From: Pyrinomonadaceae bacterium
Lineage (GTDB): Bacteria > Acidobacteriota > Blastocatellia > Pyrinomonadales > Pyrinomonadaceae
Length of the DNA: 64,000 nucleotides
Reading direction: 5' to 3'
Assembly: GCA_035273425.1 (NCBI GenBank)
Contig: DATEPB010000058.1
Span: forward strand, 44,590-108,589
A program made the position numbers and the translations under genes. Position 1 is the stretch's first letter. Each line of letters begins with the position of its first letter. Below the pieces are notes generated by a model, which saw nothing but the letters and a program-made list of their open reading frames with translations, was not told the DNA's origin and ran no database searches. Positions 1,049-48,591 of this stretch are shown here, piece by piece.

Positions 1049-1276
1049 ATAACGCTGAAAGCGTTCGCGAATTCCAGCCCAGGGTTGCGCTTTGGCAACC
1101 CTGGGGAGATAGGCCTTTTTAGAAGGGGCAATCCCGATTTATCGGGATTGCATCGCCGTTCGCAAACCCCAAAGGAGCGCAACTCCTTCAGAGTTGCGAA
1201 GATTTCTTGGAGCGTCTTGCACCCAGGGTTTCAAAGCAAACCCTGGGCTGGAATTCGCGAACGCTTTCAGCGTTAT
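1049..1276. repeat. Nested palindromic intergenic repeat (CCAGGGTTGCGCTTTGGCAACCCTGG module family)
   Basis: Left arm ATAACGCTGAAAGCGTTCGCGAATTCCAGCCCAGGGTTGCGCTTTGGCAACCCTGG is mirrored at 1223-1276. Inner hairpins are GCAATCCCGATTTATCGGGATTGC and GCAACTCCTTCAGAGTTGC. The same modules occur at 7090-7310. Confidence 0.8.
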
Positions 1277-1284
1277 CTTCGCCC

Positions 1285-2511
1285 TTACCTTTCAGAAACC
1301 AGCTCGTGTGTGTTTTCCCGCACTTTCCGAAACGCCCGGAGCACATCGTCGATCCACTGTTCGTCAGCTAACAGCGCATTGTGTGGCAACCATATCGACG
1401 TATTGCAATAGGCTTCGGCTTCAGGGCAATCGTGAACGAGGTGAGAAAACTTTCTGAAAAGCTCGTTGCGATAGATCGGTTGCGGATAACCCGCCGTTAC
1501 CGGCACACCCTCGGCCTGCAAAGCTTCGATCACCCGCGACCGCGGCACTCCGTCAAACGCCTTCTCGTCAAACTTCATCGAGAATATGTGGAAGGCGTGA
1601 GCGGTGACGCGTTCATCAATCATCTCCGGGGTGGGCTTAAGACCTGGAATCGTCAGTAAGCCTTCTCGCAGACGTTTGGCGCGTTCCATTCGTGTCGCGA
1701 CTTGTTGCGGTAATCGTTGAAGTTGGTTGCGTAGGATGGTGGCTTGAAAACCGGTAAGACGCGCGTTGGTTCCTAAGTTCGCATGCTCGTACCACTCGCC
1801 GCCTGTGCGTCGACCCTGATTGCTGATCGAACGAGCGCGTTCCGCCAACTCTGCATCGTTGGTAACCAACATGCCGCCTTCACCTGCAGTCATGTTTTTG
1901 GAAGCCTGAAAACTGAAAGAGCCGAAACCACCGAAACTTCCCACCCGCCGTTCATGCCATTCGGCGCCGTGAGCGTGGGCGCAGTCTTCAATCAAGACCA
2001 ACCCATGCTGGTCGCATAAGTCTGTCAGTAGATCCAGATCAACCGGATGCCCGGCGAAGTGCACAGCTACGATTGCGCGCGTCCGCTCATTGATGTGCTC
2101 GGCAACTCGCTCGGGGTTCAGATTGATTGTCTGTGGATCGATGTCGACGAATACGGGCACCGCTCCGACTCGCAACACGGATGAAGCGGAAGCGACGAAA
2201 GTGATCGGCGGAACTATTACCTCGTCTCCAGGTTTGATGCCTGCGGCGCTCAAGGCAATCTCTAATGAGACAGTGCCATTGGTCAGAGCGAGGCCATGGG
2301 CGGCTCCATGATATGCGGCAAACTCACGCTCCAGTGCTGCGACCGATTCGTGATAGCCGCCCCAAATCCTGCTCTCCATTACGTCGTTCAGGGCCTGGCG
2401 ATCTGTGTCATCAAAGAAGGGCCAATCGGGCGGTTGTCTGCTAACGGCAGGAATGCCGCCGTGCAACGCCAAAGGGCCACTTACTCTTTCTCGTGGAATA
2501 TTTTTCGCCAT
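1285..2511 (-). CDS. DegT/DnrJ/EryC1/StrS-family PLP-dependent sugar aminotransferase
   Basis: ORF 1285..2559. SFSFQASKNMTAGEGG matches the PLP-lysine block of this family. The start was moved to the internal ATG (MAKNIPRE...) at 2511; the start is uncertain. Confidence 0.85.
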   Translation of the reverse strand: MAKNIPRERVSGPLALHGGIPAVSRQPPDWPFFDDTDRQALNDVMESRIWGGYHESVAALEREFAAYHGAAHGLALTNGTVSLEIALSAAGIKPGDEVIVPPITFVASASSVLRVGAVPVFVDIDPQTINLNPERVAEHINERTRAIVAVHFAGHPVDLDLLTDLCDQHGLVLIEDCAHAHGAEWHERRVGSFGGFGSFSFQASKNMTAGEGGMLVTNDAELAERARSISNQGRRTGGEWYEHANLGTNARLTGFQATILRNQLQRLPQQVATRMERAKRLREGLLTIPGLKPTPEMIDERVTAHAFHIFSMKFDEKAFDGVPRSRVIEALQAEGVPVTAGYPQPIYRNELFRKFSHLVHDCPEAEAYCNTSIWLPHNALLADEQWIDDVLRAFRKVRENTHELVSER

Positions 2512-42465: not shown

Positions 42466-43800
42466 ATGAAGACAGAATCTGTTGATGTTTCTCCGACACG
42501 AAAAGAAATCACGATCGAGATCGATCCCAAGGCTGTGCGTGAGGTTTACGATCGAATTAGCGATGACTACGCGAAGCAGGCGAAGGTGCCGGGCTTTCGA
42601 CCCGGTCATGCACCACGCTCCGTGGTGCGCTCTCGTTTCAAAAGCGAGATTCGTGCAGCTGCACTTCAAGAACTGGTTCCCGCCGCTGTTAATGATGCCA
42701 TCAGCGAATTAGCGCCCAGTGCTATCGGCGAACCGGACGTTCAATTGGATAACTCTGAAGCGCTCCAGAACTTTGGCGATGAGCCGATTTCTGTCCGCGT
42801 AAACGTTGAAGTGCTTCCCGAGTTCGAGTTGCAAAACTACAAGGGCCTCGAGGTTACTCGTCAAACTCGTCCAATCGTCGACGCGAATGTAGATGAGATG
42901 CTTGAGGCGCTTCGCGAGTCATCGGGCGCGATGCAGCCAGTCGAGGATCGCGGCGCGACTCTGGGTGACACAGTCACGATAAATGTCGACGGCGTATTTG
43001 TAGGTGAACCCGATGCTGAGCACATCAAGGCAGAAGACGTTGAGGTCACACTCGGCGCCAAGGGCGTGCAGGCTGAGTTTACTGAGAACCTTAATGGCGT
43101 GCGGCCCGACGACGAAAAGACGTTTTTGGTTGAGTATCCTGAGGATTTCAGCTCAAAAGGCCTGGCCGGTAAGAAGGTGGAATACACTGCAACGGTCTCA
43201 GCATTGCGCGTGAAAGAACTTCCCGAAGCCGACGATGAATGGGCGAAAAGTTTAGGGGAGGAATTCGATTCCATCGGCACCCTGCGCTCGAAGATCCGGG
43301 AGGATCTTGAGAATCGCGCGGCGCAGGAGTCGTCCCATCGCGTCCGTGCCGATGTAATGCGCAAGCTCATCGAAGCAAATCAGATCGATGTACCGCAAAC
43401 TCTGGTCGACCATCAGACCAACGTGCGTCTTGAGAGCGTGGTGCGCGACATGATGGGACGAGGCTTGGATCCACGAAGTCAACAGATCAACTGGGAGGGT
43501 GCGAGAGACGAACTGAAGGGCCAGGCTGAAGAGGATGTACGCGGCTCGTTGCTGCTTGAACGCATTGCGGAACAGGAGCAGATCGAGGTAACAAATGATG
43601 AGATCGAAGAAGAGATCCAGACCATCGCGCGAGGCTCTCAACAGTCGATAGAACAGGTGCGAGGCGTCTTGACAAAGGATGGGGGCGAACGTAGCATCGC
43701 GAACAGGTTGCGCAACCGTAAAGCGCTTGACCTGCTGGTTGAAAACGCACGAGTAACTGACGAAGAGTGGCGCGAAAAAAAGGATGAAGATGAAGGCTGA
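42466..43800 (+). CDS. tig: Trigger factor
   Basis: 444 aa; N-terminal ribosome-binding region with GFRPGHAP motif; canonical position upstream of clpP-clpX. Confidence 0.9.
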   Translation: MKTESVDVSPTRKEITIEIDPKAVREVYDRISDDYAKQAKVPGFRPGHAPRSVVRSRFKSEIRAAALQELVPAAVNDAISELAPSAIGEPDVQLDNSEALQNFGDEPISVRVNVEVLPEFELQNYKGLEVTRQTRPIVDANVDEMLEALRESSGAMQPVEDRGATLGDTVTINVDGVFVGEPDAEHIKAEDVEVTLGAKGVQAEFTENLNGVRPDDEKTFLVEYPEDFSSKGLAGKKVEYTATVSALRVKELPEADDEWAKSLGEEFDSIGTLRSKIREDLENRAAQESSHRVRADVMRKLIEANQIDVPQTLVDHQTNVRLESVVRDMMGRGLDPRSQQINWEGARDELKGQAEEDVRGSLLLERIAEQEQIEVTNDEIEEEIQTIARGSQQSIEQVRGVLTKDGGERSIANRLRNRKALDLLVENARVTDEEWREKKDEDEG

Positions 43801-43900
43801 GGGATGAACACGAGAAGAGTTTTTCTGACTTCCAATGGTTCATCATTCAACCTTTCTTTCTCATCCTTTTTTACTGCCCGCTAAGGAAGGCTAATAACAC

Positions 43901-44485
43901 ATGGCTCTGGTTCCAATGGTCGTTGAGCAAACGTCGCGCGGTGAACGTGCGTTCGATATCTTCTCGCGACTGCTCAAAGACAATATCATTTTTCTCGGCA
44001 CGCCAATCGACGATCAAATCGCTAACCTGATCGTGGCCCAGCTGCTCTTCCTTGAAGCTGAAGATCCTGAAAAGGACATCAATCTTTACATCAATTCCCC
44101 GGGCGGCTCGATTACCGCCGGCATGGCCGTTTACGACACGATGCAATTTATCCGTCCAGACGTCACCACCATCTGCGTGGGCCAGTGCGCGTCGATGGGT
44201 GCGCTGCTCCTGGCAGCCGGCGCGAAGGGTAAACGTTTTGCCCTGCCTAACTCGCGCATACTGATCCATCAACCGTCCGGCGGATCGCAGGGACAGGCGA
44301 CCGACATTCGCATCCAGGCCGAAGAAATCCTGCGCATGCGTGAACTTACATCGCAAATTCTTGCCAAACACACTGGACAATCGTATGAAACGGTTGAGCG
44401 TGACGTAGAACGCGATAAAATAATGTCTGCCGTGCAAGCCAAGGATTATGGTTTAATAGACGAAGTCATCGCGCACCGCGAATAG
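43901..44485 (+). CDS. clpP: ATP-dependent Clp protease proteolytic subunit
   Basis: [29 protein letters not shown] (Ser) and ILIHQPSGG (His). Confidence 0.95.
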
Positions 44486-44508
44486 GGCCGGAACCCTGGA
44501 GACCTCCA

Positions 44509-44730
44509 ATGATTGCAAAAATGAAAGCACGCGGATTTAGCTGCTCATTTTGTGGCCGCTCCAGAGGAGAGGTCGCAAACATTGTGTCAGGCACCCCCCA
44601 GCGCGCTCCCGGAGTTCCCAAACAGATGATTGGCAAGACGGCTTTTATTTGTAACGAGTGTGTGCAGCGCTATCGCGAGATGGCAAGTACCCCAGACATG
44701 CCCGGCAATTCTCCCGTGCTCAGCAAATAA
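44509..44730 (+). CDS. Stand-alone ClpX-type C4 zinc-binding-domain protein
   Basis: [17 protein letters not shown]...FICNECV parallels [27 protein letters not shown] of the adjacent clpX. GGAG lies 7 nt upstream of the ATG. Confidence 0.6.
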
Positions 44731-44768
44731 GCGGGTTCGATCGAAGCTTAAGGAGATCCCCTAAACAC

Positions 44769-46013
44769 ATGGTTAGACGAACCGACGACACGCTCCGCTG
44801 CTCATTCTGTGGTAAGTCGCAGAATGAAGTGAAGAAACTAATAGCCGGCCCAACCGTCTATATCTGCAATGAGTGCATCGATATCTGTAATGAGATCATT
44901 ACAGATGATCAGCAGGCGGAGTCGGTAGCAACTCGACCGCCGCTCCCAAAGCCGGGTGAGATCAAAACCTTTCTCGATGAATATGTAATCGGCCAGGATG
45001 AAACCAAAAAGCGACTGGCTGTGGCCGTCTATCAACACTACAAACGCATCGAACTCGGCAGACGACGCTCGGAAGTTGAGATCCAGAAGGCGAATATTCT
45101 TCTCATTGGACCAACCGGAACCGGCAAGACTCTCCTGGCACAGACACTCGCGCGCATGCTTAGCGTGCCCTTCACCATCGTTGACGCCACTACGTTGACC
45201 GAAGCTGGGTATGTTGGTGAAGACGTTGAAAACATAATCCTTAAACTTCTGCAGGCTGCAAATGGCGACGTCGAGCGCGCCCAGCAGGGCATCATCTACA
45301 TCGATGAGGTTGACAAGATTTGTCGTAAGGATGAAAACCCGTCGATCACACGTGACGTTTCCGGTGAAGGCGTGCAGCAGGCGTTGCTGAAGATCCTGGA
45401 AGGTACGGTTGCGAATGTTCCACCGCAAGGCGGACGAAAACATCCGCATCAGGAATTCTTCCCGATCGACACTTCAAACATTCTGTTTATTTGCGGCGGA
45501 GCGTTCGTCGGTCTTGAGAAGGTTATCGGCAGACGACTGCGGAACAAATCCTTAGGCTTCCAGGCTGAAGTTAAGAGCGGCAGCCACCGGCACGCGGAGG
45601 CGCTGGCGCAGGTTCAGCCTGAAGATCTGATTCGCTTCGGATTGATTCCGGAGTTTGTTGGCCGGCTACCCGTTTGCGGCGTTCTGCACGAACTCGACGA
45701 AGCTGCGCTGATCAAGATTCTTACCGAACCGAAGAATGCTTTGGTCAAGCAGTATCAAAAGAAGTTCGATTTCGATAACGTAAAATTGAAGTTTACGGAC
45801 GATTCGTTGAAGTCGGTGGCGCGCCAGGCGGTTGAACGTAAAGTCGGCGCCCGCGGATTGATGATGATTCTCGAAGAACTGCTTTTGGACGCGATGTACA
45901 CGCTTCCTTCGCAAAAAAGAGTCAAGGAATTCGTCATTACCAGTGAAATGGTGGAGCGCCGAAGGGCCATTCCGGGCGAAGGCCTGGCGGGAATCGATGG
46001 GGCAGCAGCGTAG
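44769..46013 (+). CDS. clpX: ATP-dependent Clp protease ATP-binding subunit ClpX
   Basis: Zinc finger CSFCGK...ICNEC, Walker [17 protein letters not shown]. The start was set at ATG 44769. Confidence 0.95.
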
Positions 46014-46164
46014 TTTGGAGGCATCAGTAGCGCTGTGGTGAAAAAACCCACGTAGCATGTAGTTCGGAAATGATCTACAATTGGGTGTCTTTAAGGGCGA
46101 GACGGCAATTTGAGCGGCTCGCCCTTCTTGCAAACAGCCCGAAAAAAATTAAGCACTAATAATT

Positions 46165-48591
46165 ATGGAAGAATATTCAGACCGCGCTCCTGCCGACGTT
46201 GCATGGTACCCCATGGTGCCTATCCGCGACGTCGTCATATTCCCTTTCACTAAAGTAGCTTTCAAGATTGGACGACAAGGGTCGGTGCGTGCGTTGGAGC
46301 AGGCGCTAGCGGCTGATCGCACCATCTTCCTGGCTACCCAACACGACGCAACTGTTGACGAGCCGGCGCCCGATCAAATCTACGGTGTCGGAACTCTGGG
46401 ACGAATACTCCAGTCTCAGAAACAGGACAACGGTCAAATCAAAGTCGTCGTCGAGGGTCGCGAGCGCGCGACAACGGTCCGGGTGGAAAATACCGACGGT
46501 GCTTTCATGGCCCTGGTTAAACGGGCGCCGGTTGTTAACGAGGAAGGTACTCGACTCGACGCCCTCGTCCAGAAAATTGGACAACTCGTCGAACAACATC
46601 TTCGTCTCGCACCGGAAAGCCAGACCGATGCGTTACAGACAGCGCTTCGTAATCAGAATCCTTCTCATCTCGCCGATGCCCTCGCTTCCCAGTTGCGAAT
46701 CTCGGTGGAAGACAAGCAAGGCCTGTTGGAACTCTTTTCCTCACAGGCGCGTCTCCAGCGGTTGATCGAATTGCTCGAACTTGAAATCGAGAAGCGTCAA
46801 CTTGATCGCTCAATTCAGACTCGAGTTAAGCGTCAAATGGAAAAGGCGCAGAAGGAGTATTACCTCAACGAGCAGATCAAGGCGATCCACAAGGAGCTTG
46901 GCCGCAAAGACGAAAAAGCAGAGCTCGAAGACTTAAAGAAAAAGATCGAAGAAGTTGGCATGACTGAAGAGGCCAAGCAGAAAGCCATGCAGGAGCTTCA
47001 TCGACTCGAAGCCATGCCGCCAATGTCTGCCGAAGGAACTGTCTCGCGTACCTACATTGATTGGTTGGTCAATGTTCCCTGGAAACAAAAGAGCAAAGAG
47101 ATTAAAGACCTTAGCAAAGCAGAAGAGGTTCTTAACGAAGATCACTTTGGTCTGGAGAAGATCAAAGAACGCATTCTTGAGTACCTCGCCGTCAGACAAC
47201 TAGTCAAGAATCCGAAGGGCTCGATTCTGTGTTTCGTTGGCCCTCCGGGAGTCGGGAAGACGAGTCTTGGCAAATCGATAGCCCGAGCTACCGGTCGCAA
47301 GTTTGTTCGGCTGTCGCTAGGCGGAGTCCGTGACGAAGCGGAGATTCGCGGCCATCGGAGAACTTACATTGGCGCGTTGCCCGGTCAAATCATTCAGATG
47401 ATGAAGAAAGCGGGAACCATTAATCCGGTTGTCTTGCTCGACGAAGTAGACAAGCTGGGTGCTGATTTTCGTGGAGACCCGAGTTCGGCACTACTAGAAG
47501 TCCTCGACCCGGAACAGAACCACACATTTCAGGATCACTACCTCGACGTTGAGTACGATTTGTCGAAAGTCTTCTTCATCGCGACTTCAAACGTTTTGCA
47601 CACGATTCCCCCGGCGCTTCAGGATCGCCTCGAGATCCTGCGACTTTCCGGTTACACCGAACGCGAGAAGTTGGAGATTGCTAAGCGACATCTGGTACCA
47701 AAACAGGCTGAAGGCAATGGTCTGAAACCTGAACAACTGAGTTTCACGGATGAAGGCTTGCTCGAGATCATTCGTCACTTCACTCGCGAAGCTGGTGTGC
47801 GTAACCTGGAACGCGAAATCGGATCGTGCTGCCGAAAGATTGCGCGCCGTTTTGTATCCGAGAGCGTCGCATCTGATTTTGCAGACGTGGTCGACGCCGA
47901 TCGTGTTCGTGAAATGCTTGGGCCAATAAAGTTCCGGCAACACGCCGTAGCAGCCGAGAGCGAAATCGGTTTAGCCACCGGTCTCGCCTGGACCGAAATA
48001 GGTGGCGAGGTATTGCAGATCGAAGCAACACTTACTAAAGGCCGCGGTGGTGTAATGTTGACTGGAAAGCTCGGTGACGTGATGCAGGAGTCTGCGCAGG
48101 CCGCGCTGACTTGCATCAAGGCTCGATCAGAACGGCTGGCGATGAGTGTGGACTTTATCCGCAAACGCGATCTCCACATTCACGTGCCTGAAGGCGCGAT
48201 TCCCAAAGACGGGCCATCAGCCGGTATCACCATGGCGACGGCTATGGCGTCCGCCCTAACCCGGTGCGCTGTTCGAAAGAACGTGGCCATGACGGGTGAG
48301 ATCACCCTGCGCGGTCGCGTCCTCCCAATCGGTGGAGTTAAGGAAAAGCTGCTCGCTGCTCACCGTTTCGGGATCGATACTATTATTTTGCCAAAAGAGA
48401 ACGAGAAGGACCTGCCGGAAGTCCCGGAGGAAGTTCGCAACGCGCTCTGCATCAATCTGGTTGAAACGATTGATGAAGTGTTGGCGCTTGCGCTCGAGGA
48501 CGCTTGTCCAACCGATGCCGGCACCGACGAAACGAAGGCGCCGCCGATCTGGACAACCGAGCAACCTTCCCAAGGCATTCAAACCAGCTAA
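46165..48591 (+). CDS. lon: Lon protease (LonA)
   Basis: GPPGVGKTS Walker A and [14 protein letters not shown] catalytic Ser; 808 aa. Confidence 0.95.

Follow-up and report, generated by a model that had tools for sequence, protein, structure and literature searches.

A maintained gene encoding a predicted free-standing ClpX-type zinc-binding domain is located between clpP and clpX in a subset of Pyrinomonadaceae

A small open reading frame (ORF) situated between clpP and clpX in uncultured soil bacteria of the family Pyrinomonadaceae is a genuine gene that is maintained under purifying selection. Its 73-amino-acid (aa) product is predicted to be a zinc-ribbon protein, i.e. a diverged form of the zinc-binding domain (ZBD) found at the N-terminus of ClpX, and probably modulates the ClpXP protease in some way. 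A more specific role, as an accessory ClpXP factor acting on the ClpX N-domain pathway, is proposed tentatively and given a little less than an even chance. The gene was examined within the window (i.e. the whole 64,000-nucleotide stretch of contig DATEPB010000058.1 that was analysed), where tig, clpP, the small ORF, clpX and lon follow one another on the plus strand with the following features.

42466-43800 (+): tig (trigger factor), from the ORF list; opens the conserved tig-clpP-ORF-clpX block
43901-44485 (+): clpP, 194 aa (Pfam CLP_protease, 288 bits)
44498-44501 (+): GGAG Shine-Dalgarno sequence of the small ORF, from the sequence, with a 7-nt spacer to the ATG
44509-44730 (+): the small gene, for a predicted free-standing ClpX-type ZBD protein of 73 aa and 7.9 kDa (PF06689, homologues, dN/dS, synteny and PDB matches); TAA stop codon included
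44509-44541 (+): conserved basic N-terminal segment, residues 1-11 (conservation among 165 members)
44542-44553 (+): first zinc knuckle, C12-S-F-C15 (invariant columns; 2DS5/2DS7 alignment)
44593-44634 (+): 14-residue insert, T29-G42, in the beta-hairpin turn of the ZBD (gap relative to ClpX; invariant columns; dN/dS)
44650-44661 (+): second zinc knuckle, C48-N-E-C51 (C48, E50 and C51 invariant)
44653-44685 (+): C-terminal helix of the ZBD, residues 49-59 (AF2 model; 2DS7 alignment; residue frequencies)
44686-44727 (+): disordered tail, residues 60-73 (pLDDT <50 at residues 63-73), ending in SPVLSK (44710-44727)
44750-44755 (+): AAGGAG Shine-Dalgarno sequence of clpX, in the 38-nt spacer; kept in occupied and empty junctions
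44769-46013 (+): clpX, 414 aa, with its own canonical ZBD (NF003745, 645 bits; PF06689, 70.4 bits; Pfam match at residues 10-45, i.e. 44796-44903)
46093-46126 (+): GC-rich hairpin 3' of clpX, a possible operon end before lon (RNA fold of -20.6 kcal/mol, z = -1.8)
46165-48591 (+): lon (local gene order)

The relationship of the small ORF to ClpX was examined using profile and pairwise comparisons. The ORF product was matched in two stretches by the Pfam profile PF06689 (zf-C4_ClpX), whose gathering cut-off of 27 bits was exceeded with a score of 41.1 (E 1.6e-10). In a BLASTP alignment to the adjacent ClpX, the finger was 30% identical (E 1e-8), with a single gap of 14 residues. A PF06689 scan of the whole genome (98% complete) scored the same frame at 41.3 bits and returned two matches only, ClpX and the small ORF. 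The original prediction, made from the DNA letters, of a stand-alone paralogue of the ClpX ZBD between clpP and clpX was therefore borne out, and the motifs that it quoted were exact. Its statement that no AAA+ module is present also held, as the ORF product reached only 18.6 bits with the ClpX equivalog model TIGR00382 (cut-off of 370.75) and 16.3 bits with NF003745 (cut-off of 359). The putative ligands C12, C15, C48 and C51 (i.e. C-x2-C ... C-x2-C) did not vary among the 59 members aligned and occurred in every one of the 167 distinct members analysed, and zinc binding by the protein is inferred from this sequence pattern. Owing to the 14-residue insert, the two Cys pairs are separated by 32 residues as compared to 18 in the contiguous PF06689 domain (~39 residues), and the domain is accordingly not contiguous in this protein. 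An insert had been described in the original prediction as 15 aa long; its presence was confirmed but its net length is 14 residues (T29-G42). Similarly, the tail described as Pro-rich contains three Pro in 14 residues and is only mildly so.

Structural comparisons pointed in the same direction. All significant PDB sequence matches (E < 0.01) were to ClpX ZBDs or to full ClpX. An AF2 model generated from a diverse alignment had moderate confidence (pLDDT of 66 overall and 70-78 in the core), with predicted strands at residues 25-28 and 45-48, a helix at residues 49-59, the insert as a loop between the strands and a disordered tail, which agrees with the treble-clef fold (strand-strand-helix) of the solved ZBD. 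The best two Foldseek matches of this model were ClpX (9a5x, probability 1.00) and the ClpX ZBD 2ds6 (probability 0.98, TM of 0.74 normalised to the target), whose weak E-values of 0.018 and 0.21 are due to the tiny size of the domain. An earlier AF2 model built from close homologues only (pLDDT of 57.6) gave no Foldseek match. After ClpX, the nearest structural neighbours were ribosomal zinc-ribbon proteins, with E > 1 and probabilities below 0.25.

Maintenance of the ORF was examined in its homologues. A word-index search of 5.8 billion proteins found 208 homologues, and those among the matches listed all came from Pyrinomonadaceae or Blastocatellia metagenome bins; identities were 70-92% and the length was exactly 73 aa in 101 of the 120 clusters listed. 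Twenty columns were invariant in 59 aligned members, comprising the four Cys and 16 others. For 11 syntenic orthologues, Nei-Gojobori dN/dS was 0.11 overall, 0.049 for residues 1-57, 0.076 for the insert and 0.57 for the tail, at a median dS of 1.6, where synonymous divergence is saturated. Variable columns were distributed over the three codon positions as 39/31/70. Conservation in relatives, a coding-like third-position pattern and invariant Cys ligands were thus all observed, i.e. the opposite of the sequence-based findings that had been set out as counting against a gene. A non-functional origin, either as a decaying remnant of a partial tandem clpX duplication or as a chance ORF, might have been supposed from the location directly upstream of clpX, the similarity to the clpX 5' end and the absence from most relatives. 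This explanation is refuted by the selection analysis, as the dN/dS of 0.05 on the finger at saturated dS, the invariant columns and the constant length are not those of a decaying sequence, and only a vanishingly small likelihood is left to it.

The genomic setting of the gene was strongly conserved. Among 58 species-level genomes of uncultured Pyrinomonadaceae, drawn from GTDB representatives, clpP was directly upstream and clpX directly downstream in 55, the three exceptions being contig ends or partial matches. The median gaps were 28 nt to clpP and 42 nt to clpX, and in most related loci tig was located upstream (tblastn). The range of the gene was narrow: it was detected in 11 of 24 genomes of the same genus, in 19 of 200 Pyrinomonadaceae genomes (7 of 60 genera) and in none of the 16 genomes taken from elsewhere in the class. 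Only four sequences at E <= 1e-10 came out of an exhaustive HMMER scan covering 1.84 billion cluster representatives. In genomes of the same genus with an empty site, clpP and clpX were 36-60 nt apart, and these genomes formed one clade on a tree of clpP plus clpX DNA, on which two changes suffice to explain the distribution. A mobile element or horizontal transfer was ruled out on this basis, and the pattern suggests that the gene was inherited vertically and was gained or lost along the way. The gene is missing from ~90% of the sampled Pyrinomonadaceae and from one clade of its own genus. The ClpX zinc finger (residues 1-43) was the same with or without the small gene, being identical in all same-family genomes compared but one, so that there is no co-variation in ClpX backing a contact. 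Since ClpX does not co-vary and close relatives lack the gene, the gene is dispensable and represents an accessory, rather than a core, part.

The start signals and the surrounding regulatory sequences were also inspected. The ORF starts after a 23-nt gap from the clpP stop codon (TAG, 44483-44485), and its TAA is followed after 38 nt by the clpX ATG (44769). The GGAG with a 7-nt spacer that had been proposed as ribosome-binding site is present in the sequence, and GGAG-like sites were seen at a similar upstream distance in most of the 11 orthologous loci printed. Most of the N-terminal positions 1-10 were conserved in at least 90% of 165 members, supporting M1 as the start codon. Scans of the clpP-clpX junction for promoters and terminators were at chance level; one transcript spanning clpP, the small ORF and clpX is therefore the simplest reading. 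A sigma-70-like site (TTGAGC-16-TAAAAT, 9/12 matches) was noted at 44394-44421 (+), inside the 3' end of clpP and ~88 nt before the small ORF, and was not counted as evidence of an internal promoter, since the regional count of such sites was below the shuffled expectation. The ribosome-binding region of the small ORF contained no significant RNA structure (z = 0.0), and no credible Rfam match was obtained in the junction or the flanking genes. An RNA element or attenuator in the junction was discarded, the sole Rfam match (MIR844, 28 bits against 70) being sub-threshold and lying between tig and clpP (43769-43882). The clpX-lon spacer is 151 nt long and contains a GC-rich hairpin of 10 bp (AAGGGCGAG...CUCGCCCUU) with a weak T-run; it was missed by the terminator scan because of the weak T-run, and it is possibly a terminator or attenuator parting lon from the clp operon.

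In a sister family of Blastocatellia, a different gene was found to occupy the clpP-clpX slot. This gene, which encodes a 136-aa protein with two ZBDs, was present at this position in 60 of 61 genomes, representing 17 of 17 genera, and the tig-clpP-ORF-clpX block containing it was seen in 16 of the 16 loci checked. In this protein a canonical ZBD is followed by a second ZBD that has three Cys in most members (i.e. C-x2-N ... C-x2-C). In one genus of the sister family (g83), clpX is on another contig and the double-ZBD gene is still directly after clpP; all four Cys are present in its second ZBD, suggesting that the ancestral 136-aa form had two intact fingers. One example of each is given below.

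G026:C14:100740-101147 (-): 136-aa ORF (loci L026/L031; also L032-L046)
G254:C402, ORF 1276-1686 (-): double-ZBD gene of genus g83 (locus L132), second ZBD with all four Cys

The 73-aa and 136-aa forms both occupy the tig-clpP-X-clpX slot but differ in that the latter has two ZBDs, lacks the hairpin insert and, with a net charge of -2 in the median, is acidic. A special common descent of the two forms was considered from a shared 'YREM' after the helix. The hhalign score between the 73-aa and 136-aa families was 56.8 as compared to 62.9 between the 73-aa family and the ClpX ZBD (the third pairing figure being 79.3) and gives no support for it. As the two forms are no closer to each other than the 73-aa form is to the ClpX ZBD, separate partial duplications at the clpX 5' end and descent from a common ancestor are equally likely.

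Several features set the 73-aa protein apart from the ClpX ZBD. The insert, which is specific to this family, basic and rich in Pro, contains the invariant residues P30, V36, P37, M40 and G42, and in profile alignments two segments, KQMIGK and ANIVSG, both map onto the same ClpX strand; judged from this alignment, the insert may have arisen by local strand duplication. An alternative identity for the insert, as an IGF-like loop for ClpP binding, was rejected, as MIGK reads I-G-K and not [ILV]-G-[FL] and aligns to a ZBD strand. Hairpin inserts of 8-15 residues were also seen at the same position in several unrelated free or tandem ZBD metagenome proteins (P0134, P0143, P0144, P0146 and P0148), and the ZBD hairpin turn seems to tolerate or favour elaboration. 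The first-knuckle columns C12, S13, F14 and C15 were invariant. By alignment to 2DS5 and 2DS7, F14 is equivalent to F16 of E. coli ClpX, and position 58, which is M, I, L or V in 158 of 167 members, is equivalent to I46. The hydrophobic docking-pocket residues are therefore retained in the 73-aa protein. In E. coli ClpX, trigger factor, SspB and RssB all use a hydrophobic pocket made up of F16 and I46, and binding of E. coli trigger factor to this ZBD pocket has been reported (PMC7804408).

The charge and the termini of the protein were equally distinctive. The 73-aa protein has a net charge of +7 and a pI of 9.8, and +7 is also the family median, whereas the ClpX ZBD is acidic (net charge of -2, pI of 4.8). 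At the C-terminus the family has the motif S-[AP]-[VA]-[IVL]-[TPS]-K-COOH, with SPVLSK in this genome; of the 167 members, 155 have Lys at position -1 and 152 have an aliphatic residue at -3, and the rest of the tail evolves nearly neutrally. The XB peptide of SspB is LRVVK. The tail has a loose likeness to this peptide, with the aliphatic pair shifted by one position. The combination of a basic protein opposite an acidic ClpX ZBD, a retained pocket, a conserved N-terminus and a C-terminal motif is new here.

Substrate choice by ClpXP is governed largely through the N-terminal ZBD of ClpX and, to our knowledge, the known regulators of this step (i.e. SspB, RssB, CpdR, trigger factor and the anti-adaptors) are all unrelated proteins. 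From the sequence features described above, we infer that the 73-aa protein contacts ClpX and has an effect on proteolysis. The basic protein would dock on the acidic, invariant ClpX ZBD dimers through its tail and/or its basic surfaces, in a manner like the SspB-type tethering by a short C-terminal peptide. Its own insert-bearing ZBD could then represent an altered docking platform, which would make the protein a specificity-switching adaptor; as a second option, the ClpX docking pocket could be blocked for other partners, resulting in an anti-adaptor-like activity. For SspB, the tether to the ClpX N domain is a short stretch at the tip of its disordered C-terminal tail (PMC9963277).

The roles proposed in the original prediction (i.e. 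competitor, heterodimerising modulator or adaptor mimic) fared unequally. A competitor or decoy would consist of free ZBD homodimers holding the adaptors or substrates of the ClpX N domain away from the protease. There is a precedent in that the isolated E. coli ZBD, added in trans, inhibits RssB-mediated sigma-S degradation in vitro (PMC7226468). Retention of F14 and of a hydrophobic residue at position 58 would also suit a decoy, as would expression from the same operon, which would fix its ratio to ClpX. A pure decoy, however, should mimic the ligand surface of the ClpX ZBD and be expected to stay like this invariant domain, whereas beyond the knuckles and pocket the surface of the 73-aa protein has diverged strongly (identity of 30%, an insert of 14 residues and a net charge of +7 against -2). 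The reversal of charge and the conserved termini thus speak against a simple same-ligand decoy, which is considered unlikely, and favour a protein that docks on ClpX.

Pairing of the small ZBD with a ClpX ZBD protomer is a further alternative, by which the protein would act as a heterodimerising 'poison' subunit and shift N-domain geometry and substrate gating. According to the Pfam description, the ZBDs of ClpX dimerise constitutively, and dimers are also described in PMC7226468. The strand and helix elements of a ZBD are predicted to be present in the model of the 73-aa protein, and the opposite charges of the two domains could favour a mixed dimer. The interface may nevertheless be incompatible given the insert in the hairpin and a helix that reads QRYREM in place of DICNEI in ClpX, and the lack of co-variation in ClpX also counts against this role. 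The tandem double ZBD of the sister family, in addition, looks more like a self-contained pseudo-dimer. A heterodimerising subunit is accordingly rated as the least probable of the ZBD-based mechanisms and as distinctly improbable.

The protein might also have a role unrelated to ClpX docking, e.g. as a small basic zinc ribbon for nucleic acid or ribosome binding that began as a partial copy of the clpX 5' end and was kept in the operon. The high pI and positive net charge would be compatible with such a role, the weak structural neighbours after ClpX were ribosomal zinc ribbons and free ZBD proteins occur elsewhere in many unrelated contexts. Against this stand the strict conservation of the clpP-clpX position over a dS of ~1.6, the retention of ClpX-type pocket residues and the independent keeping of a ZBD gene in the slot by a second family; the ribosomal matches themselves had E > 1 and probabilities below 0.25. 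A function apart from ClpX is hence regarded as no likelier than the decoy, and docking on the ClpX N domain is retained as the proposed activity.

Comparison with characterised systems indicated both likenesses and differences. The 73-aa protein shares with the ClpX ZBD (PF06689; E. coli structures 1OVX and 2DS5-2DS8) the C-x2-C pairs, the CSFCG and ICNEC knuckles, the strand-strand-helix arrangement and the F16/I46-equivalent pocket but is free-standing, basic and insert-bearing, with another helix sequence and conserved termini of its own. The ClpXP adaptors and anti-adaptors (SspB, RssB; IraD/IraM/IraP, YirB) act at the ClpX N domain. The 73-aa protein has a predicted disordered tail with a conserved terminal motif that is only loosely similar to the SspB peptide; unlike SspB, it has no SspB domain, PF06689 being the only domain found by Pfam, and the SspB domain PF04386 had no match in the whole genome whilst control genomes were positive. 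We know of no described adaptor that uses a ZBD itself as its cargo-binding body. The closest system in concept is the mycobacterial ClpC2, which likewise is a separately encoded copy of the docking N domain of an AAA+ unfoldase. ClpC2, reported to be partly homologous to the ClpC1 N domain but encoded on its own, binds cyclomarin A, a ClpC1 ligand, and protects the cell (PMC10030653). ClpC2 differs in having a Clp_N repeat fold and not a zinc ribbon and in serving another unfoldase, and the likeness is one of analogy only.

If the proposed activity is correct, a docking domain made as a separate protein, at a constant ratio to ClpP and ClpX, would represent a novel means of tuning an AAA+ protease. 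On a wider and more speculative reading, which we regard as possible but doubtful, operon-encoded free ZBDs would be an overlooked class of built-in ClpXP regulators that dock back on ClpX and re-programme N-domain-dependent substrate choice. Such proteins would have originated more than once as partial copies of the clpX 5' end (i.e. the 73-aa form in Pyrinomonadaceae and the 136-aa form in the sister family) and would be to ClpX what ClpC2 is to ClpC1. The analysis turns a single odd ORF into a defined family with a conserved insert, retained pocket, reversed charge and terminal motifs.

Free ZBD proteins were also surveyed outside the clp operon. A length-limited profile search detected at least 7,997 clusters of proteins of up to 137 aa in which PF06689 is the only domain, many of them tandem, with source names such as 'ClpX C4-type zinc finger protein' (NCBI) or 'ATP-dependent protease Clp ATPase subunit'. 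The stand-alone architecture is therefore neither unique nor unrecorded, given these clusters, the names already assigned to some of them by NCBI and the other, double-ZBD gene that fills the slot in the sister family. In line with the original prediction, whose author was not aware of a characterised gene of this kind, no functional study of a free-standing ClpX ZBD protein was found in a full-text literature search that covered few subscription journals. Since free-ZBD proteins are very common in databases, biochemical work on one of them could provide an annotation for thousands. Six free ZBD genes from elsewhere, sampled on long contigs, were all remote from clp genes, indicating that the clpP-clpX position is not generic. 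The 73-aa family shares its domain-only architecture with the generic PF06689-only proteins but differs from them in being single-domain, insert-bearing, operon-embedded and confined to a Pyrinomonadaceae subclade; the architecture is common and the operon-embedded position is special.

Two groups of matches in these searches were set aside. The top match of the exhaustive protein search was a 1,682-aa metagenome protein (P0121), which consists of a 30-fold tandem repeat without Cys knuckles and was dismissed as a repeat artefact; its repeat unit (…GSLVQRYRRYALVREVPGSSPP…) resembles query residues 28-69. ZBD-only proteins of phages were considered as a precedent; tblastn against phages was uninformative, with only 18 partial matches, mostly to unannotated fragments. 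In Escherichia phage P88 (KP063541.1:10372-10449; H9/H10), a gene annotated as 'carboxylate-amine ligase' contains a ClpX-ZBD-like segment with 65% identity over 26 residues to the ClpX finger of this genome.

In other Blastocatellia families, free or fused ZBD genes were located elsewhere in the genome. A second, full-length ClpX-like frame (415-418 aa) that includes a ZBD was also seen in some Blastocatellia genomes, at a site distant from clpP-clpX (L114, G247:C23:184481-184588; L115, G251:C1:237305-237409). The fusions (L113, L116, L117 and L131) included a 184-aa protein with a C-terminal helical domain, proteins of 149 and 187 aa in which the ZBD follows an N-terminal domain, and a two-ZBD protein of 243 aa, suggesting that the ZBD is used as a portable module.
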